From: a virus
DNA length: 35,864 nucleotides
Reading direction: 5' to 3' (one strand)
Virus genome (UHGV): UHGV-0042415
Both the position numbers and the translations under genes were made by a program. The notes under the pieces are model-generated. The model saw only the letters and a program-made list of their open reading frames with translations. It searched no databases and was not told the DNA's origin. The stretch's first letter is position 1; every line of letters starts with the position of its first letter. Shown piece by piece: positions 6,981 through 19,078 of the stretch.

Positions 6981-9779
6981 ATGACGGCAGAGTACATCAG
7001 GGACTGGCAACAGCCGCGCCACGCAGTGGGACGTGAAGGAACGGGGATCCCCGTTCCTGAATCCGCGCTTTCCTCCTGGCTGGATGCCTACCGGGCAGAG
7101 AACGAGCGCCGCCAGGAAATGGCTGATGCGGCGTTCTCCGCCACGCCGCTGGGCAACCTGATTAATAAAAGCCTGGATGCACAGGAAAAACAGGACAAAA
7201 CCATCACACTGGCAGGAGACGCCAGAAAACAGGTACGCGGTGCGGTGGATGAAGCCATGGCCTCGCTGCGCCTGCTGCCGTCCTATCTGCGCGATCCGCT
7301 TATTCGCCACCTCTCCTTCCTGCGCAAAAAACAGGAAGCCGATCGCCGGAAAGGCAAAAAGAGCTGGCAGGCTGAACGCTACGCGCGCGGAACCCTGCGC
7401 AAAATATTCGAACGTCTGGACCGCACCGACCACCGCTGGCTGACACCGGGTTATCGCTCCCTTGCCGGACGCGAACGCCTGGATGATTTGCTTTACCTGC
7501 CGCAGCTCAACAAGCACCAGATACAGACGCTGGCCACCATGACGGCGGCGATGTTCAGCAGCACCTTCGAAAAACTCTGCGATGGCTTTGGCGCGACTGA
7601 TGGCGAGCTGACCATGGAGGTAACGCTGAAGGCGTATCAGATGCTGGCCCGCATGGCGTTACACCTGCACGCCATGCCTCCGCATTATGACGCACTGACA
7701 ACAGACAAAGACCGGAGGAACGAACCGGACACGGAGTTGCTGCCGGGCGCAATCCTTCGCCTGACCTGTGCGGAATGGTGGAAACGCAAACTGTGGCTGT
7801 TACGTTGCGAGTGGCGGGAAGAACAACTCCGCGCCGCCTGTCTGGTTTCCAGAAAAACATCGCCCTATCTGAGCCAGGACGCGTTAAGCGAGTTTCGCGC
7901 ACAGCGCGAGAAAACACGCGATTTCCTGAAAAGTTTCATGCTGGAAAACGAAGACGGGTTCACGATTGATCTCGAGACGGTGTATTACGCGGGAGTAAGT
8001 AATCCGGTTCATCGTAAGGCAGAAATGATGGCCACCATGAAGGGGCTGGAACTTCTGGCCGAAGCCCGTGGCGACAAAGCGGTGTTTCTGACTGTCACCT
8101 GCCCGTCAAAATACCACGCCACAACAGAGAACGGTCATCCGAATCCCAAATGGAACGGGGCCACCATGCGCGACTCCAGCGATTACCTGGTTAACACGTT
8201 TTTTGCGGCGGTCCGCAAGAAACTGAACCGCGACGGCCTGCGCTGGTATGGCATCCGCACGGTGGAGCCTCACCATGACGGCACCGTGCACTGGCATATG
8301 ATGGTCTTTGCTCATCCGGAAGAAATCGACACCATTGTGTCCCACACCCGCGATATTGCCATTCAGGAAGATCGTCACGAGCTGGGTGATGATATTACCC
8401 CACGCTTTAAGGCGGAGTACGTCGACGGCTCAAAAGGCACACCGACCAGCTACATCGCCACCTACATCGGGAAAAACCTGGACAGCCGTGCCGTGGATGG
8501 CATCGACCCGAAAACGGGCAAGCCACGCGTTGACCACGAAACCGGAAAATCAATGGCCGAGAGCGTGGAACGCGCCATCGGCTGGGCGCGCCTTCACCGG
8601 GTCCGCCAGTTCCAGTTCTTTGGTATCCCCTCCCGTCAGGTGTGGCGTGAACTGCGCCGCCTTGCCAGCCAGATGGCTCGCAACCCGGAAGGACCGCAAC
8701 GGCTGAAGGATGACGCAATGGACGCGGTTCTTGCTTCCGCTGATGCCGGATGTTTTGCCACCTACATAGAGAAACAGGGCGGCGTACTTGTTCCACGCAA
8801 GGACTACCTGATTCGCACCGCCTACGACCTCGCAGATGAGCTGAACGATTACGGTGAACAGAGCGTACAGATTTACGGGATCTGGTCACCGCTCATCGGG
8901 GAGTCTTCCCGCGTATGCACGCATCCGGACAACTGGAAGCTGGTAAGACGCAAACCGGAAGCGGAAGACAGCGCCCGCGAAAATGGTTTTGACCTTCAGG
9001 GCGGCCCTGCCGCCCCTTGGACTCGTGGCAATAACTGTCCCCGTGTACAGGAAACGGACAACAACGGGACAGAACAGCCGGAAGAACGGCCAGCACCGTG
9101 GCCGCAGCTTCCTGACGGCGTTGACGTGAATGAATGGATGCGCTCACTGAAACGGCACGAACGCCGGGCGCTGATGCGTTCGCTGCGTGACAAACAGGCA
9201 AAAAACAGCAGTGATGAAATGCAGAACTGGACACAGAGCCGCAAACAGCCACAGCCTTTGCCTGATAACCACGAGTTACTCGCTAAAGAATGGCGGGAGT
9301 CTGCTGAATCTCTCGGCCTGCATATCGGTGAACAGCAGGTGCAGCACCTGTTACGGGGCGGCAGTCTGTACGTTGACGGCAGCATCATTGCACCGCAGGG
9401 ATTTGAAATTGTACGCAAACCGGATACCCGCCAGGACAGCCGAATCACGCAGCTCTGGCAACGCCTGAGCCGTAATCACGGCGTAAGCAGCACGGAGATC
9501 CGCCATAACCCGGTCGCCAGCTATCTGGAACAGCTGGGGGCATCAGACCCTGAAGCCGCCGCACGCCTGGCATCCACACTTCAGCAGGACCAGAACACCA
9601 TGAAAACACCCGTTACCGTGCTTTCTGACATGCTGCGCGCCATCCGCGACGCAGAGCACGCACAGAGAATCAGTGAAACCACTGAACGCGCCCGCCGCAA
9701 AGCAGACCTGCTGCGGGGTGGCCTGACCAGTGGAAACAAAAAAACAGACAGAAACGGGACTCACAAATCCCGTAAATGA
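6981..9779 (+). CDS. A: Rolling-circle replication initiator (P2 gpA-like endonuclease)
   Basis: 932 aa; HUH-type motif VHWHMMVF and paired catalytic tyrosines YIATYIGK as in P2 A-family initiators; long Q/R/E-rich C-terminal extension. Confidence 0.88.
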   Translation: MTAEYIRDWQQPRHAVGREGTGIPVPESALSSWLDAYRAENERRQEMADAAFSATPLGNLINKSLDAQEKQDKTITLAGDARKQVRGAVDEAMASLRLLPSYLRDPLIRHLSFLRKKQEADRRKGKKSWQAERYARGTLRKIFERLDRTDHRWLTPGYRSLAGRERLDDLLYLPQLNKHQIQTLATMTAAMFSSTFEKLCDGFGATDGELTMEVTLKAYQMLARMALHLHAMPPHYDALTTDKDRRNEPDTELLPGAILRLTCAEWWKRKLWLLRCEWREEQLRAACLVSRKTSPYLSQDALSEFRAQREKTRDFLKSFMLENEDGFTIDLETVYYAGVSNPVHRKAEMMATMKGLELLAEARGDKAVFLTVTCPSKYHATTENGHPNPKWNGATMRDSSDYLVNTFFAAVRKKLNRDGLRWYGIRTVEPHHDGTVHWHMMVFAHPEEIDTIVSHTRDIAIQEDRHELGDDITPRFKAEYVDGSKGTPTSYIATYIGKNLDSRAVDGIDPKTGKPRVDHETGKSMAESVERAIGWARLHRVRQFQFFGIPSRQVWRELRRLASQMARNPEGPQRLKDDAMDAVLASADAGCFATYIEKQGGVLVPRKDYLIRTAYDLADELNDYGEQSVQIYGIWSPLIGESSRVCTHPDNWKLVRRKPEAEDSARENGFDLQGGPAAPWTRGNNCPRVQETDNNGTEQPEERPAPWPQLPDGVDVNEWMRSLKRHERRALMRSLRDKQAKNSSDEMQNWTQSRKQPQPLPDNHELLAKEWRESAESLGLHIGEQQVQHLLRGGSLYVDGSIIAPQGFEIVRKPDTRQDSRITQLWQRLSRNHGVSSTEIRHNPVASYLEQLGASDPEAAARLASTLQQDQNTMKTPVTVLSDMLRAIRDAEHAQRISETTERARRKADLLRGGLTSGNKKTDRNGTHKSRK

Positions 9780-9880
9780 GCAAAAAACGTGCCGCGATAT
9801 ATGAAGCGCGCACAAAACAGGCAAAAGCGGGATTTAAAAATCCTGTAACCGATTAATTAATCAACATAAGGAAAAGCGAC

Positions 9881-10840
9881 ATGAAAATTTGTATCGACGA
9901 CGGCTCCACCAACATCAAGCTGGCATGGACTGAGAACGGCGAACGCCGCAACGCCATCAGCCCGAACAGCTTCAAGTCGGAATGGTCTGCGCCGTTCGGT
10001 GGCACGCAGCCCGCGAACTACATGCTTGATGGCGTGCGCTATGGTTTTGATCCGGTCAGCGATCGCTTTGTCCAGACGACCGACACGCAATACCAGTACA
10101 GCGATGTGAATATAATTGCCATTCATCACGCGCTGGTCAAATCAGGCATCACACCACAGGAAGTGGATGTGGTTGTCACCCTGCCACTGAGCGAGTATTT
10201 CGATACAAACGCACAGCCGGACATGGCCAACATCAACCGCAAAAAAGCGAACGTCATGCGCCCGGTGGAGTACCAGAACGGCGAAGCATTCACTATCCGT
10301 AACGTACGGGTTATGCCTGAATCCATTCCGGCTGGCTTTAAGGCACTGGCTGACATGAGTCCGTTTGAATCCCTGCTGATTGTGGATTTGGGCGGAACCA
10401 CGCTGGATGTGGCAAAGGTTCAGGGGCAACTGGCAGGTATCAGCCAGGTGTTTTGCGATCCACACGTGGGCGTTTCTCTGATGGCCGATGCCGTACTGTC
10501 GGTGATGGCCACTAACGGTATGCGCACCAGTCACCACATCGCCAATACCATTATCGAACATCGCCATGATGAAGCCTGGCTGCGCCAGCACATCCACAAT
10601 GACGCGCATTACGCCAGCCTGATGGCGGTAATTCGTGAAAAGGAAGAAACACTGAAACAACGCGTGATCCGCGCGCTGGCGGGTTTTTCGGGTTACGGGC
10701 GGGTGATGGTTGTCGGTGGAGGGGCGGAGATTGTGGCACCCGCTATCCGCGAAGCCTGCGGAGTTAATGCGACTTTCATCGCGGACGGGGTGCCACAGTT
10801 TGCTCTGGTTAATGGGCTGTACGCAATGGACAAGGAGTAA
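9881..10840 (+). CDS. parM: ParM/StbA-like actin-fold segregation ATPase
   Basis: 319 aa; N-terminus MKICIDDGSTNIKLAW closely matches plasmid R1 ParM (MLVFIDDGSTNIKLQW); phosphate-2 motif LIVDLGGTTLDVA; same length as ParM. Confidence 0.85.
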   Translation: MKICIDDGSTNIKLAWTENGERRNAISPNSFKSEWSAPFGGTQPANYMLDGVRYGFDPVSDRFVQTTDTQYQYSDVNIIAIHHALVKSGITPQEVDVVVTLPLSEYFDTNAQPDMANINRKKANVMRPVEYQNGEAFTIRNVRVMPESIPAGFKALADMSPFESLLIVDLGGTTLDVAKVQGQLAGISQVFCDPHVGVSLMADAVLSVMATNGMRTSHHIANTIIEHRHDEAWLRQHIHNDAHYASLMAVIREKEETLKQRVIRALAGFSGYGRVMVVGGGAEIVAPAIREACGVNATFIADGVPQFALVNGLYAMDKE

Positions 10841-10844
10841 ACCA

Positions 10845-11156
10845 ATGACGACTCCAACCAGACGGATAAGTTTCTATCTGAAGCCCACCGCCGTCAAGAA
10901 CGAAGGAGAAGCATGCGCCTGGCTGGACAGCCTTACACCAGAAGCCCGCAAAAGCGGCCAACGCGTGGCTTTTCTGGCCGGGCTGGCACTTCTGAAAATG
11001 AATCCGGCAGAGGCTTATCGACTGGCTGCATGGGCTGGTGATGAAGCGTTATCAGTGACACAAACCAGGACAGAACGCCCCGCATCACAGCCAGTATCAA
11101 CCGCACAGATAACCAGTCAGATGGCCGGAAATATCCGGGCGTTATTTCCTGAATAA
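10845..11156 (+). CDS. parR: ParR-like small DNA-binding adaptor protein
   Basis: 103 aa from the ATG at 10845 with SD aggag; RRISFYLKP...AFLAGLALLKMNP...IRALFPE resembles R1 ParR (RTIAFKLNP...AALTAGLALY...LRSLFPKE); directly follows parM. Confidence 0.65.
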   Translation: MTTPTRRISFYLKPTAVKNEGEACAWLDSLTPEARKSGQRVAFLAGLALLKMNPAEAYRLAAWAGDEALSVTQTRTERPASQPVSTAQITSQMAGNIRALFPE

Positions 11157-11219
11157 CACAACATCAGGGCGAGTTCGCCCTGCTCTCCACCTCAGAACAT
11201 AAACAAGGAGAACGACTTA

Positions 11220-11603
11220 ATGAGCGAAATCAACTATCAGGCATTACGTGAACGTTATTCACCTGTGCCAGTACCGAAATGCCCTATTTGCGGCGAGGAA
11301 ATGTCAATTCAGCGAATATCTGGAGCACAGGTTGTTTATGCCTGCTCCGGTTATGGTGATGATGGAGATTTCAAAATTGGTCGAACTCTTGCCGACGAAC
11401 ATTATGAAAAATCACGCGTAACAGTGTTGGATGTCGGGGATCCTGAAGTATTGGCGCTACTTGATTGGCTGGAAACCAAAGACAACCGAATCGCTGAACT
11501 GGAAAAAATCGCCACTGACTATGCACTTAAATTCCAGAAAGCACAGGACGCATTAAAGTACGCCGCTTTGCTGCATAGCAGGACAGCGCAGCTAAAATAC
11601 TAA
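11220..11603 (+). CDS. Hypothetical protein with N-terminal Cys cluster and helical C-terminus
   Basis: 127 aa; CPICGEEM...YACSGYGDDGD; SD aaggag upstream. Confidence 0.6.
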   Translation: MSEINYQALRERYSPVPVPKCPICGEEMSIQRISGAQVVYACSGYGDDGDFKIGRTLADEHYEKSRVTVLDVGDPEVLALLDWLETKDNRIAELEKIATDYALKFQKAQDALKYAALLHSRTAQLKY

Positions 11604-11693
11604 CTTAAAGCGGAAGATTAATACATGGTGAGTCGGGGTAATTTGTTTTTATCCCGACAAATAAACAAAAAAGTGGACTATCTCTGTAGTATC

Positions 11694-12224
11694 TTATTCA
11701 GCATCGTCTCGTGCAGTCTGTGCATACGTCACAACAACGCCCAATGCATTAGTTTTCTTTTCAACATAGATAATATTGTCATATTCATAGTTACCATACG
11801 GATAGCAAATAAGAATATTTTTATGCAGTTCGGGATCATCAACAAACGCTCCGGAACAGCTTCTTGAACTACCAGATGTATACTCATACGGTGCAACATA
11901 TGATGATGTTACTCCTGGTAAAAAATAAGTCACCATCATAAGAGGGATAATCAGGAATATCCCTGTAAGAATGCAAGAGCCAGCATAAACCTTCAGGTAT
12001 TCCGACAGTCCTTTCCAGCCACTTTGCTTCACTACCCCCCTCTTCACCAGAAACAAGGAGAAGAAAAAGGACATACCCATACTACACAAGATGTAATAAT
12101 TGGATATACGCGAATTAAGATATGTAATCCTGTAGATATCTGCCCTCCACCAGTAAAAGAGGAAAATAATCCCTAGCACTGAAACAGTCATGCAAATCAA
12201 ATAAGGATATGAATCTTTCTTCAT
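11694..12224 (-). CDS. Three-TM inner-membrane protein with soluble C-terminal domain (AT-rich cargo)
   Basis: 176 aa; hydrophobic segments YLICMTVSVLGIIFLFYWW, YILCSMGMSFFFSLFLV, CILTGIFLIIPLMMVTYFL; strongly AT-rich gene on the strand opposite its neighbours. Confidence 0.7.
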   Translation of the reverse strand: MKKDSYPYLICMTVSVLGIIFLFYWWRADIYRITYLNSRISNYYILCSMGMSFFFSLFLVKRGVVKQSGWKGLSEYLKVYAGSCILTGIFLIIPLMMVTYFLPGVTSSYVAPYEYTSGSSRSCSGAFVDDPELHKNILICYPYGNYEYDNIIYVEKKTNALGVVVTYAQTARDDAE

Positions 12225-12828
12225 GTCTTGCGCTCATTAAAATTTCCCTGCTACGAACAAATTTACCATCCGTTTTTTGCGCAGAAAACAGCACGATGCA
12301 CACTGCACGATAGTGCACAAATTTGCACAATTTTTTTGAACGACTTTTTCCCCTTCCGGCCCGTATAGCGGCTGGATCCGTCAAGGATCCGTGCGTGCAC
12401 AAAAAAACGCGCTTTTTCTGCGCGCAGGTGACGGGGGAACAGCCCGCGTTTCAGGGGGTAAATAGCATTCCCTGAACGATGTCGCAGCGACACAACAGAA
12501 TGGCTGTATCGCTCACGCTGAGCGTGAAAAATACGTAAGGGGTTCTGATTTGATGGGGTGAAAGGTAAGGCCGTCAAATCGCAATGAGACGGCGAGAACA
12601 TGCTGTCAGCTCGATGGGATTGCGTAAGAGTCTGGCCATCGATGATGGCGATAAGTTGGAAGACGTCGTGAAATTATCTGATTGATACGGGTGCTGGAGA
12701 GTCGGGGCATAAATTTTTTATGCCCCGGCGAAGCAGCAGACAAGCGAAGCGCGTCAGTGATGCGGCACCTTGCCGACCACACTCCATAAGTGCAAAATAC
12801 GAGCAAAGAAATCAATGGAGGCTGTTTT

Positions 12829-13353
12829 ATGGTCATTAATTACAAGCAGTTACGAGAAAAACGAGAGCAGGTAAAGGAAAGTTTTCGCCGCAATGAAGAT
12901 CTGACCCCGCTTGTACACCTTGCCCAGGGAATTGTTGATGCTTATGAAATCTCTCTGGAGCTGCCATCACAGACATGGACGGATAGCGACGGTAATCGCC
13001 AGCATTACGTTTCATGCGGACTGGAAACAACTGAAGGGTTTCGCAGAATGCCTTTATCTCAGATTCCTGCCGCTACCCCCAAAGCAAGGGGCGGCAATGA
13101 TGAGCGAAAACTGATTTTTAGCATTGAGACAGTGGTTGACGACACACCTGGCGAAGTCGCGTTCGTGCATACTCCTCTTTCGATCGCAATGTATAACGAT
13201 GAAATACAGGTTCGCGTTAATAATAATATCGTGCCACTTAAAGAAGGTAATTCACCCTACACCACCGTTTGTGAAGCCATTCAATATTACGTTCTCTCTG
13301 AAATTGATAATCTCAAGCCTGACGGCACCCAGAAAATGGTTCAACTCTGGTAA
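12829..13353 (+). CDS. Hypothetical soluble protein between the putative cos region and the portal gene
   Basis: 174 aa from the ATG at 12829 with SD ggagg (the ORF track starts at an upstream GTG); followed by its own terminator. Confidence 0.6.
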   Translation: MVINYKQLREKREQVKESFRRNEDLTPLVHLAQGIVDAYEISLELPSQTWTDSDGNRQHYVSCGLETTEGFRRMPLSQIPAATPKARGGNDERKLIFSIETVVDDTPGEVAFVHTPLSIAMYNDEIQVRVNNNIVPLKEGNSPYTTVCEAIQYYVLSEIDNLKPDGTQKMVQLW

Positions 13354-13359
13354 TAAGGA

Positions 13360-13384
13360 CAGCCCCATCACGGGGCTGTTTTTT
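13360..13384 (+). terminator. Rho-independent terminator
   Basis: cagcccc-atcac-ggggctg stem followed by TTTTTT; overlaps the portal stop codon. Confidence 0.7.
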
Positions 13385-14414
13385 CATCAAGAAGTGCATA
13401 AGAGTTAAAACGGATCACCTCTTCGCCAAGCCAGTCATTGATGTGCTTCATGGCCTCCATGACGGGCATCAGCTCGTTAATTGCGTAAACCCGCGCGGCC
13501 TTCTCCACATCACCAAACGCACTTTTTTCACCCGGCATCGCCCCCATCAGTTGCGGCGGAACGCGGTGCGCAGCCAGCACATCATCACGGGATGCCGCCT
13601 TAACATTCATGAACTCATCCTTTGCGGTGATCTGCTGGAACGGCAAAATTTGCACCCCCTCTTTGCCCCCGTTGGGCGCATGAATGAGCACGTTTTTAAA
13701 CGCACCACCACCACGTGCCCCCTGTAGCGTTTCTTTCAGGGAGTCCATGCTTTCGCGGTTTACCTGCGCTGCACCGATGTAGATGATGCACCCGGCGTGG
13801 GATCCGTTGTCGTAATACAGTTTTCTGAACATGTCCGCCGAATGAGACAGGCTGGCCGAGAGTAATGCGCCAAGATATTCCGGCATGCCGTAAATTTCCT
13901 GGTTAATGTCAGGATTCATCAGGTGGCACACTTTACCAGGGCGAAACTGAAACGCATCCTTGCCATCCTGCACATACCACCATGATTCAAGATCGCTTCC
14001 GCGTCGCATGTATTTCGCCAGGGCGTGCCGTAATTTAAGCGGTTCGCCGAGCATATTGCTCCGAAGCTCAAGGAATGCGTTACCGAACACAAACCAGTCC
14101 AGCGCCAGCGCCGAGAAATCCTGCCGGGAAAGCAGCGGGTGCGGAATGTAGCAACCGAGCAATACATTACGCTTAAAGTAAAGCGCAGACTGATGCCAGG
14201 ACGTTTGCCGGGCAGCTCTTGCCAGACCGTACCAGTCCACCGGGGTTTCATACCACCGCCCGTTATCAGCACAGTACATGTTGTCCAGCAGGTCATGCCC
14301 GGTCAGGCGATAAGGACCATCAAATGTGAATGCACTGAGCGATGATTCTTTCCTGAGCGCATCAGCGAGATCAATGCGTGAACTCATGCGCACTTTTTTA
14401 TTTTTTCTGCTCAT
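13368..14414 (-). CDS. Q: Portal protein (P2 gpQ-like)
   Basis: 348 aa; size and sequence resemble P2 Q; 1-nt overlap with the terminase gene; leftward orientation as in P2. Confidence 0.9.
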   Translation of the reverse strand: MSRKNKKVRMSSRIDLADALRKESSLSAFTFDGPYRLTGHDLLDNMYCADNGRWYETPVDWYGLARAARQTSWHQSALYFKRNVLLGCYIPHPLLSRQDFSALALDWFVFGNAFLELRSNMLGEPLKLRHALAKYMRRGSDLESWWYVQDGKDAFQFRPGKVCHLMNPDINQEIYGMPEYLGALLSASLSHSADMFRKLYYDNGSHAGCIIYIGAAQVNRESMDSLKETLQGARGGGAFKNVLIHAPNGGKEGVQILPFQQITAKDEFMNVKAASRDDVLAAHRVPPQLMGAMPGEKSAFGDVEKAARVYAINELMPVMEAMKHINDWLGEEVIRFNSYALLDEKTAP

Positions 14415-16165
14415 CAGAACTCCATAACCGTGAAACGCTCGTTTTCTCCTTCGCCGCCAATCGGTTCGTTAATGACAGCAAGCATGGTTGCCCACGCAAG
14501 GTCGCCGTGGCTGATCCCCCTCGCGCGGTCCGTTTCGTAAGTGATAAAGCCGCCCGGTGTTTTCACCTTACGCACGGCGTTAAAGGCCGCGACCAGCTCG
14601 CGTTCGGCGCGATCGTATTCCCACCGCCCGGCACGCATTATTTGCAGCATTTTCAGTACCAGCGACCGTTTTGATGACAGCGTGAAGGTGTACGGAATAG
14701 CAGCAGGGAAAAACCGTTTCACTATCTGATAAACAGCCTCCCCGTTCCCGCCCGTCACATCAATGCCGATGTGTTCCACGTTGTAGCGACACGTGAACTC
14801 TTCAATGACTCTGGCCTGTTCTTCAAACTCCAGCCCCTGAACGCGTCGCGTCTCCACCGTTCGAAAACGGCCTCCAGGAACAGCCGGAGGAACCACTACG
14901 GACACAGCGCCGCTGTCGCCGTTTCCACTGCTGCCGTTTGCGTCATACCCAATCCATACCGGACGATTCCCCATCGGGCGGGGAGCAAAAGGTTTCCAGT
15001 CTTTCCAGTCGTCGTATCCGTCAACACCGCAGCCAATCAGTATATTCAGGTTAAATGCCGATTCCCCTTCGCGGACAAACTCACACATATAGAGATTGCG
15101 GAACTCGTCTTCGGTGTTTTCATCACGAATTTCGTCAATATCGGTGTGTTTCCAGCCGTGATTAACCACATCTTCCAGCGTGACAATTTGCCGCCACGTC
15201 CGGTCAGGGCAGATAAGCCCGTTATGCAGCGTTTTCCAGTCCACAGAAAAACGCTGACGTTTATGCGTGGCCTTTTTCTCGTTCCAGCGGTCGCCGTTCC
15301 AGTAGGCGTATGCCTCGTGCGTTTCGGTGGATGGCGTGGAGAAGTAGGTGCGCCGCAGTCCGCTGAGGGTTGCCATAGCGCCAGCCACCTTGCGCAGTTC
15401 AGCAAAGCGACTGACCCAGAAAAATTCATCAAAATAAAAATTGCCCGTGTAGGACTGTGCCGTCGCAGCAGAAGTACCAAGAAAATGCAGCTCTGCGCCG
15501 TTGGAGAGGATGATTTTATCGCCCCCTTTCAGCTCCACATCAACTTCAGATGCAGCCTTCTGAATAATGCTTTTAAACTGGAACGCCTGACGACGCGACG
15601 CAGACAAAAAAATCTGGTTACGCTGGTAAGGTTGCGCCACATCGTCACGCAGCGCCATCAGCAGTGCTTCCTGTGCAAAATACCAGGTCGCCCCAATCTG
15701 TCGGGATTTCAGGATCATCCTGTTACGTATCCCGGCTTCACTGCAAAGGGTCAGGGAGTCAAACCAGCCCCGCTGATGCCACTCCAGCCTGCTGATGATT
15801 TTTTCCCGCAGTGCGGCAATCTGCTCCGGCGTGAAATGATTTTTAAGTTTTTTCGCCCGGCCTTTCTTTCCTGTGGCCGTCGCATCCGGCTGGCCATCAT
15901 GCAGTTTTTTAAGCTGCCGGGTCAGCAGGTCTATTTCCTTAAAGTCACCGCCTGTTTTATTCTGTTTTTCAGTAAGCTGGATGAGGCGCGCATCGATGGA
16001 CTGCGTGACACGCTGCACGGGTGGCGTTTCATCCCACTGGTCGCGTTTTTTCCACGCATAAATCGTGTTCGGGTTTATTCCCATCAGACGTGATATTTCT
16101 GCGGGCGGATAACCCTGCCAGTAAAGTTGCCGCGCACGCTGGCGCACAAAAGCGTCCTGAATCAT
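14414..16165 (-). CDS. P: Terminase large (ATPase) subunit (P2 gpP-like)
   Basis: 583 aa; divergent from the O-N-M-L operon as in P2. Confidence 0.9.
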   Translation of the reverse strand: MIQDAFVRQRARQLYWQGYPPAEISRLMGINPNTIYAWKKRDQWDETPPVQRVTQSIDARLIQLTEKQNKTGGDFKEIDLLTRQLKKLHDGQPDATATGKKGRAKKLKNHFTPEQIAALREKIISRLEWHQRGWFDSLTLCSEAGIRNRMILKSRQIGATWYFAQEALLMALRDDVAQPYQRNQIFLSASRRQAFQFKSIIQKAASEVDVELKGGDKIILSNGAELHFLGTSAATAQSYTGNFYFDEFFWVSRFAELRKVAGAMATLSGLRRTYFSTPSTETHEAYAYWNGDRWNEKKATHKRQRFSVDWKTLHNGLICPDRTWRQIVTLEDVVNHGWKHTDIDEIRDENTEDEFRNLYMCEFVREGESAFNLNILIGCGVDGYDDWKDWKPFAPRPMGNRPVWIGYDANGSSGNGDSGAVSVVVPPAVPGGRFRTVETRRVQGLEFEEQARVIEEFTCRYNVEHIGIDVTGGNGEAVYQIVKRFFPAAIPYTFTLSSKRSLVLKMLQIMRAGRWEYDRAERELVAAFNAVRKVKTPGGFITYETDRARGISHGDLAWATMLAVINEPIGGEGENERFTVMEF

Positions 16166-18277: not shown

Positions 18278-19078
18278 ATGATTACTCCTGCACAGCAACA
18301 CTGGCAGAACGTGATGGCACAGCGCGCAGGCCGGGCGAATGAAGGCGTGGACCACGCCGCGCGTACCGCGCATGAAGAGGTGCTGTATCGTCTGCGTCTG
18401 GCACAGGCCCGGCTTAAGGGCGTACAGGCAAGAAGCGCGAAAGCCGCCATCAAAAAAGAGTTGTTGCCGGATTTTTCCGGCTGGATTGAGGGAACGCTGG
18501 AGGCTGACGGCGGGCAGCAGGACGAAGTGATTGCCACGCTGATGGTGTGGGCGATTGACTGCGGCGATCTTCCGCTTGCGCTGCGTATTGGTGCGTATGT
18601 GGTCCGTCACAACCTCATCATGCCGGATAACTTTGGCCGTACTGCTGCCACGGTACTGACCGAAGAAATCTGCAACCCGGTACTGACGCAGGCCGGGACG
18701 GATGCCGACGCGGATTTGTCCACCTTTATCGAACCACTGGACACACTTTGGGAAATTGTCGCCAACCAGGATATGCCGGACGAAGTGCGCGCCAAATTAT
18801 GCAAGGCGTGCGCCTTTGCCCGTCGTGGTCTGACCGATGCAGACAACATGGCCTTATCACTGAAGCTGCTGCGCGAAGCGATGCACCTGAACCCGAACGC
18901 AGGTGTGAAACGCGAGATTGCAACCCTTTCCCGCGCCCTGAAAAAAGCCGATTCCGCAGCCGCACCAGAAGACGCCAGCGCACAGCAGACGCAGGACGAA
19001 AGCAGCAAAAGTAAAAAGACAACGCGGAAGCCTGCAACACGAAAAACCACCGCGACGCAGAAGGCGAAGCGCGGTTAA
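18278..19078 (+). CDS. M: Terminase small/endonuclease subunit (P2 gpM-like)
   Basis: 266 aa; position after N; basic C-terminal tail. Confidence 0.85.
   Translation: MITPAQQHWQNVMAQRAGRANEGVDHAARTAHEEVLYRLRLAQARLKGVQARSAKAAIKKELLPDFSGWIEGTLEADGGQQDEVIATLMVWAIDCGDLPLALRIGAYVVRHNLIMPDNFGRTAATVLTEEICNPVLTQAGTDADADLSTFIEPLDTLWEIVANQDMPDEVRAKLCKACAFARRGLTDADNMALSLKLLREAMHLNPNAGVKREIATLSRALKKADSAAAPEDASAQQTQDESSKSKKTTRKPATRKTTATQKAKRG

Follow-up and report, generated by a model that had tools for sequence, protein, structure and literature searches.

The 160 bp from position 12304 to 12463 are very probably the cos packaging site of a P88-like prophage of the P2 family, as judged from comparison with related sequences. 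Positions refer to the window, which is the whole stretch of viral DNA that was analysed (UHGV-0042415, 35,864 nt). An earlier note, made from the letters of the window alone, had placed cos within 12225-12828. This was borne out by positional homology with P2, P4, 186 and SEN4, by a profile search, by satellites that carry the site and by assembly scars. The rest of 12225-12828 lies outside cos: upstream DNA of a cargo gene, a lineage-specific spacer and the leader of an accessory gene (Table 1).

Table 1. Features of the predicted cos site and its surroundings in the window.
Feature	Position	Strand	Remark
Replication gene A	6981-9779
Membrane ORF	11694-12224	minus
Cargo-specific flank	12225-12303		outside cos; lies upstream of the membrane ORF
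Three TGCAC(G/A)A repeats	12304-12330	plus	exact 10-bp phase, starts 12304, 12314 and 12324; left edge of the conserved block
T7 tract	12331-12337	plus	directly after the third repeat
Central cos spacer	12338-12395	plus	length conserved, sequence differs between lineages
Proximal TGCAC and A7	12396-12407	plus	72 bp start-to-start from the third distal repeat
GC hairpin CGCGC-TTTTTCT-GCGCG	12408-12424	minus	abuts the predicted left nick
Predicted cosN, 19-nt 5' cohesive end GGTGACGGGGGAACAGCCC	12427-12445	plus	nicks within about 2 nt on either side
Right flank of cosN, GCGTTTCAGGGGGTAAAT	12446-12463	plus	last satellite-shared part; right edge of the core
P88-lineage-specific spacer, cos to portal	12464-12757		hairpin-rich, without a conserved ORF
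Inverted repeat	12692-12738		22-nt imperfect arms; perfect 10-bp core GGGGCATAAA-TTT-TTTATGCCCC (12704-12726)
Leader of the inserted accessory gene	12758-12828	plus	GGAGG ribosome-binding site at 12817-12821; absent from P88
Portal Q	13368-14414	minus
Terminase large subunit gpP	14414-16165
Terminase small subunit gpM	18278-19078

By its closest relatives, the window is a P2-family (Peduoviridae) prophage of the P88-like type, genus Xuanwuvirus. Pfam and the map of open reading frames (ORFs) showed P2-type capsid, small terminase and portal genes, and the identity to the P2 proteins was 36% for gpM, 44% for gpP and 47% for gpQ. A cognate P2-type terminase (gpM, PF05944, together with gpP) is encoded on the same element as the cos site. 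The genes are arranged in the order replication gene A, parM/parR, Ead/Ea22-like gene, membrane ORF, non-coding region, accessory ORF, portal Q and terminase P. The region 12225-12828 is the gap between two start codons, a minus-strand ATG at 12224 and a plus-strand ATG at 12829. The cos of P2-like phages is located between gpA and gpQ, beside a hotspot of variable defence genes (Rousset 2022, PMC9122126). The non-coding region of the window occupies this place, between the cargo behind gene A and portal Q, with cos and portal Q on opposite strands. The accessory ORF 12829-13353 belongs to PHROG 5091, of unknown function. It is regarded as an insertion, because in P88 the conserved block, which extends to about 12757, abuts the portal gene. 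The two flanking cargo ORFs had no match in PADLOC or Pfam, and PHROGs assigns them to families of unknown function.

The motifs that the earlier note had listed in 12225-12828 were all recovered, coordinates included, and its statement that no convincing ORF spans the region agreed with the comparison of relatives. The ORF 12584-12685 was intact in only 1 of 77 unique relatives, and the other small ORFs, including those annotated in P88, were not conserved. The variable sites had no codon-position bias (28/26/31). The covariance models of Rfam 15 gave no match at E <= 1 in 11000-14000 on either strand. The results showed neither a conserved ORF nor an Rfam family in the region, either of which the earlier note would have taken as evidence against its reading.

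Ziermann and Calendar reportedly described a conserved core of 55 bp in the cos sites of P2, P4 and 186 in 1990. For the comparison, the records of P2, P4 and 186 were each joined right end to left end, and positions were counted from the first base of the mapped 19-nt overhang. The earlier note had proposed an alignment to the cos regions of P2, 186 and their relatives, and this alignment revealed a homologous layout. TGCAT occurs at -124/-123, -111, -101 and -29 in P2, P4 and 186; TGCAC occurs at -123, -113, -103 and -31 relative to 12427 in the window. The third distal repeat and the proximal copy are 72 bp apart in P2, P4, 186 and the window alike. A MAFFT alignment of 17 cos regions was almost gap-free and set GGTGACGGGGGAACAGCCC on the P2 overhang GGCGAGGCGGGGAAAGCAC. 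A profile HMM was then built from P2, P4, 186 and SEN4 only, whose ends are mapped or author-reported, and was used with all filters off. The search of the 35.9 kb gave one significant match, at 12310-12452 on the plus strand (E = 1.3e-7, profile positions 26-169), and the next best match had E = 0.77. The profile aligned the mapped overhangs from 12427 onwards.

The cos sites of P2, 186 and P4 have 19-nt 5' cohesive ends, GGCGAGGCGGGGAAAGCAC / GGCGTGGCGGGGAAAGCAT. The site in the window shares with them its location between the cargo after the replication gene and the portal gene, a gpM/gpP-type terminase, and its occurrence in satellites. The layout is also shared: a phased TGCAY triplet, a fourth copy followed by an A-run, a GC-rich segment, and a G-rich 19-mer starting GGYGA. 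However, the repeat core is TGCAC instead of TGCAT, 6 of the 19 overhang positions are different, the cut is 31 bp and not 29 bp away from the proximal repeat, and the central spacer has another sequence and contains a GGATCCGT tandem. The distance from the overhang to the point that abuts the portal gene is approximately 310 bp in the P88 lineage and 167 bp in P2. SEN4 has its proximal TGCAC at -29 and TGCAT/TGCAC at -111 and -101, and its sticky ends were reported by its authors as ggcgaggcgggggaacgag (PMC5261728). The overhangs of SEN4/SEN5 and of Ralstonia phage RSA1 (GGTGAGGCGGGGTCCAAC; compared by overhang alone) have the same GGYGAG...GGGG core, but their 3' halves differ.

The window has a single set of three TGCAC in exact 10-bp phase, where chance would give 0.01, and three of the four copies of TGCACAA in the window lie within this 100 bp. 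By analogy, the distal triplet is a putative recognition array of the terminase small subunit. The T7 tract and a pair of repeats form a weak terminator-like hairpin on the plus strand. The central spacer contains CCCTTCCGGCCC, an imperfect inverted repeat CCGGCC/GGCTGG (12356-12375) and the tandem GGATCCGT-CAA-GGATCCGT, with its copies at 12374-12381 and 12385-12392. In many other lineages, P4 included, the spacer is GGCGCGGTCTGA... instead. The tandem is a spacer inside cos that is specific to the P88 lineage. The palindrome AAAAAAACGCGCTTTTT (12401-12417) is likewise inside cos and P88-lineage-specific; it combines the A-run that follows the proximal repeat with the GC hairpin's left arm and loop. 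P2 has a CCGCCC-N8-GGGCGG hairpin in the same place, and the Novemvirus and satellite variants lack the GC hairpin of the window. On the minus strand, from 12425 to 12407, a hairpin followed by T7 gives the pattern of an intrinsic terminator; such matches are no commoner than in shuffled sequences.

The boundaries of the site were determined from its relatives. The similarity to P88-like phages runs from 12303/12304 to approximately 12757. In the more distant Enterobacter phage phiT5282H (Novemvirus), only 12304-12448 is kept. Two short motifs, scanned against viral contigs, yielded 157 new loci with 121 distinct core sequences, and in all of them unrelated cargo lay to the left of the first conserved TGCAC. 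The cargo flank 12225-12303, which holds an 18-bp palindrome GTTTTTTGCGCAGAAAAC (12272-12289), was common only to loci with the same cargo (L032, L035 and L094). The earlier note had counted five GCAC(A/G) cores, which start at 12291, 12298, 12305, 12315 and 12325. All five are present, but only three of them lie within cos. From the divergence on the left side, the cores at 12291 and 12298 belong to this particular, variable cargo, and the repeats at 12304, 12314 and 12324 are the conserved ones.

The site is widespread. A 175-bp query (12296-12470) matched 1106 of 5426 complete E. coli genomes, approximately one in five, and nearly all matches listed begin at query position 8-9, which corresponds to 12303-12304. 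None of the 25 RefSeq matches listed has an annotated feature under the match. E. coli M8 (NZ_CP019953) matches all 175 bases of the query with 100% identity. In addition, 49 more distant loci (57-78% portal identity) were fetched through their portal protein, independently of the cos motifs. A full-length cos match was found in 46 of the 49, 200-900 bp past the portal stop and on the opposite strand; two of the other three were cut off at or just after the portal gene. The 46 loci have a common layout, with the distal repeats, the proximal TGCAC followed by an A-run, and GCGC(G)CA followed by GG(T/C)GA. Repeats 2 and 3 are conserved across them, repeat 1 is less so, and the third distal repeat is nearly always TTGCACAA. 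The TGCAC repeat core was present in almost all sampled loci.

The cos motifs are also present in three satellite loci (L105, L121 and L127), in whose available DNA neither a portal nor a terminase was matched. L121, which was examined in detail, codes for a P4-like integrase, a Toprim primase of 897 aa and another protein of the integrase family. An Ogr/Delta zinc-finger protein is encoded right beside its cos, and a P2-family capsid protein and a MazF toxin are encoded as well. L105 has a fragment that matches the P4 integrase. When L121 and L127 were aligned with the window, the common part was only 12304-12463 (TGCAC ... GTTTCAGGGGGTAAAT); the sequences are identical up to TAAAT and unrelated thereafter. 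Cos is the sole region common to P2-like phages and their satellites (PMC9122126). Because only cos is shared in this way, the functional core of cos is put at approximately 160 bp.

Within this core, GGTGACGGGGGAACAGCCC, which occurs once in the window, is likely to be the overhang, to within 2 nt, as its alignment suggests. The earlier note had pointed to a loose resemblance of this G-rich 19-mer to the P2 cohesive end, and the 19-mer does sit at the position of that end. Aligned by eye without gaps at the homologous position, GGTGACGGGGGAACAGCCC and the P2 overhang GGCGAGGCGGGGAAAGCAC are identical at 13 of 19 positions. A direct search with the P2 overhang, allowing up to 3 mismatches, gave no match; the likeness is visible only in the positional alignment. 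The sequences at the overhang position in relatives form a graded set, GGTGACGGGGGAACAGCCC, GGTGACGGGGGGCAAGCCC, GGCGACGAGGGAAGGGCGC and GGCGAGGCGGGGGAGCAAG, of which GGCGAGGCGGGGGAGCAAG is close to the P2 overhang. The nick positions are uncertain by approximately 2 nt, because the profile alignment has a gap of 2-3 nt inside the overhang and the proximal repeat is at -31 compared with -29 in P2. The overhang could thus be shorter than 19 nt, or the nicks could be shifted by approximately 2 nt.

Among 124 loci fetched via the repeat motif, the overhang region was exact in 114, cut off by the end of the locus in 4 and altered by substitutions only in 6; none had insertions or deletions. The copies that bear the overhang (approximately 120) are mostly prophage-derived. 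Two assemblies have deletions here. In the Chuche assembly, GGGAACA (12435-12441, 7 nt) is deleted; its virion origin is presumed from its record (isolated from mud), and the deletion could be a sequencing error in a G-run. In the virion-derived P88_4B11 assembly, CCCGC (12443-12447, 5 nt) is deleted, with one substitution. Other assemblies from the same study as P88_4B11 have scars inside known cos sites: P2_2H4 ends at 9|10 of the 19-nt overhang and carries transposase-adapter remnants, P2_4C9 is without 10 nt of the overhang, and Lambda_2B8 breaks at 7|8 of the lambda overhang and has a C-to-T change. No linear phage record starts at a window-type or GGTGACGGGGGGCAAGCCC-type overhang, all such records being prophage-derived; SEN4 and SEN5 are the only linear records that begin at a related overhang.

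The cut might also fall elsewhere in the same block, outside 12427-12445, either at the tandem GGATCCGTCAAGGATCCGT (12374-12392) or at 12348/12349. This is very unlikely in our estimation. The tandem is exactly 19 nt long and lies just to the right of an inverted repeat, but it is absent from the Novemvirus-type and satellite variants that retain the rest of cos. The position 12348/12349 is suggested by the linear record of P88_4B11, whose first nucleotide corresponds to 12349, 78 bp left of the predicted cut, and whose ends are contiguous; the starts of other records from that study lie in or at their cos sites. The authors of the study removed contig-end repeats and set nucleotide 1 relative to reference genomes (PMC6969025). 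Because nucleotide 1 was chosen by reference, the start of the record is not a mapped end, and the clue loses most, but not all, of its weight. Position 12350 is also among the least conserved of the block, the placement of the known overhangs by the profile speaks for 12427, and both assembly scars fall within 12435-12447 and not at 12349 or 12374. An alignment of the P2 hairpin and overhang on 12356-12400, with the tandem as the overhang, was dropped once P4, 186 and divergent relatives had been aligned.

A further explanation denies the packaging site itself and takes the GCAC cluster for repressor operators or for a centromere bound by ParR, so that the region would be regulatory. The phased direct repeats do adjoin a divergently transcribed gene, and a parM/parR pair lies 1.1-2.4 kb upstream. 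In ParMRC systems, however, parC sites are normally upstream of parM, and the repeats are not: they lie 1.1 kb downstream of parR, past two unrelated genes. P2, P4 and 186 have these phased repeats too, equally far from the cut, and they are also found in phiT5282H. No parMR is annotated in the cos-flanking stretches of P2 that were covered, in the whole P4 record or in the stretch of phiT5282H; the 186 record was covered at its ends. The repeats also stay constant while the neighbouring cargo gene changes completely between loci. From the lack of an annotated parMR in the P2, P4 and phiT5282H DNA compared and the place downstream of parR, it follows that the repeats are not ParR sites or operators of this phage's repressor, and we consider this explanation extremely improbable. 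The regulatory role that the earlier note had added to its packaging site is thus not supported: the repeats are part of the conserved cos layout, in the form TGCAT in P2, P4 and 186.

Under the preferred reading, 12304-12463 would work as a P2-type cos. In P2 and P4, the terminase acts on closed circular DNA; its cleavage at cos produces 19-nt cohesive ends, and the capsid is filled by threading of the DNA (PMC2231350). If this element behaves like P2, P4 and 186, gpM/gpP would recognise cos on the replicated phage DNA. The recognition part would be situated left of the cut, with the distal triplet and, 31 bp before the cut, the proximal TGCAC; binding of gpM to these repeats is inferred by analogy. 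The T7 and A7 tracts may bend the DNA. Both tracts, with the fixed spacing of 72 bp (approximately seven helical turns), would position the repeats relative to the cut. The top strand is predicted to be nicked between A12426 and G12427 and the bottom strand 19 nt to the right, which would leave 19-nt 5' overhangs; this cleavage position is deduced from the alignment. No solved structure was found for gpM or a relative.

The cos of lambda (cosQ-cosN-cosB) is likewise composite, with a nicking site, repeated recognition elements for the small subunit, bend-prone DNA and 5' ends. However, the sequences and the terminase proteins are unrelated, and the lambda overhang has 12 nt. With respect to the packaging genes, the repeats of this site and those of lambda are on opposite sides of the cut. 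P2 and P4 package closed circles, and lambda packages concatemers (PMC2231350). We suggest, as an idea that is rather unlikely to hold, that the TGCAY triplet and the fourth copy at a fixed 72 bp are a recognition array for the small subunit, comparable to lambda cosB, across Peduoviridae and their satellites, and that the repeat core and overhang type define packaging-specificity groups. If so, L121-like satellites would go with helpers of the P88 type, and P4 with those of the P2 type.

These results give the coordinates of the packaging site in a widespread E. coli prophage lineage and predict its cohesive end. They can be used for orienting genomes, for spotting assembly scars at phage ends, for cosmids or transducing particles with P88-type helpers, and for recognising dependent satellites. 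The conserved repeat layout is a concrete target for studying DNA recognition by P2-type terminases. In the literature searched, there was no description of a P88 cos, a Xuanwuvirus cos or the TGCAY repeat layout, and the P88 and PhiSM papers among it do not mention the site; the repeats may already be described in Ziermann and Calendar 1990.

The spacer to the right of cos contains hairpins at 12506-12534, 12547-12580, 12611-12642 and 12692-12738. Another, at 12450-12476, has the arms TTCAGGG (12450-12456) and CCCTGAA (12470-12476); its 5' arm lies in the satellite-shared flank and its 3' arm outside it. The block 12464-12757 may have a function alongside cos, as a region that terminates the P-Q late operon or stabilises its 3' end, or as a small non-coding RNA. 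We hold this to be somewhat doubtful. The folds of the two strands are much more stable than those of shuffled sequence (z = -4.1 and -4.2), and in P88 the long hairpin is 30 bp past the portal stop, which is the position of the tQ terminator in P2. However, the core of this hairpin (12704-12726) is not followed by a T-run on either strand, the Rfam models gave no match, and the block is absent from related lineages. There was almost no covariation in 64 sequences, because these are too similar to be informative. The hairpin 12611-12642 does have paired changes relative to the majority form (CGAT/ATCG versus CGGT/ACCG). Termination or stabilisation of the P-Q transcript is the most economical guess for this block. 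In addition, 12440-12531 is approximately 74% identical to the DNA just upstream of the terminator tL4 of phage 434 (E = 1e-3).

The predicted cohesive end of the window (12427-12447) carries internal deletions of 7 nt and 5 nt in two virion-derived P88-like assemblies, Chuche (L172, its virion origin assumed from the record) and P88_4B11 (L002). In records from the study of 4B11, adapter remnants were kept or bases were missing at the known cos sites of P2 and lambda. These deletions and remnants inside cos therefore indicate that public genomes of cos phages labelled as 'complete' can bear scars at their true ends.

The same cos as that of the window was present in a satellite-like element, L121 (1-12700), and also in two further IMG/VR contigs, L127 and L105. 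L121 encodes a Toprim primase of 897 aa, a P4-like integrase together with a further gene of the integrase family, a MazF toxin, an Ogr/Delta zinc-finger gene that adjoins cos, a 236-aa ORF of unknown function, and a P2-family major capsid protein (470-aa ORF) whose N-terminus appears extended. The window portal and terminase and P4 sid and psu were looked for in L121, and no match to any of them was found. Possession of a capsid gene would set a P2-dependent satellite apart from P4.

Features of the window on either side of cos and at the partition locus
Feature	Position	Annotation and setting
ParM/ParR (StbA/Plasmid_stab_B)	9881-11156	plasmid-partition pair
Cargo ORF	11694-12224	PHROG 1416, membrane protein; flanks cos
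18-bp palindrome GTTTTTTGCGCAGAAAAC	12272-12289	upstream of minus-strand membrane ORF
Cargo ORF	12829-13353	PHROG 5091; insertion between P88-type hairpin and portal stop; flanks cos

In L032, a relative with the same cargo, the counterpart of the palindrome is GTTCTTTACGTAGAAAAC. The centre changes from TGCGCA in the window to TACGTA in L032 and is palindromic in both, and the element is possibly an operator or a hairpin of the cargo gene. Right of cos, the hairpin at 12611-12642 is TCGATGG/CCATCGA in the window and CGGT.../...ACCG in the majority form of the relatives; both arms are changed and the pairing is kept. Some variants among the relatives contain G-T pairs, which would be tolerated in plus-strand RNA only. 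The stretch 12440-12531 is similar to phage 434 (L005:187-276; approximately 74% identity, E = 1e-3), where the counterpart is the pL operon segment immediately upstream of the terminator tL4. The loop GGGGTAAATAGCATT is identical, and the flanking stem has one compensatory pair. This match may be marginal.

The ParM/ParR pair is carried by a P2-like prophage that also has an integrase, and the same is true of P88. On visual inspection, the 100 bp preceding parM (9780-9880) showed no obvious iteron array. Pfam and PADLOC searches gave no match for either cargo ORF flanking cos; both ORFs are located in a known P2 defence-gene hotspot.
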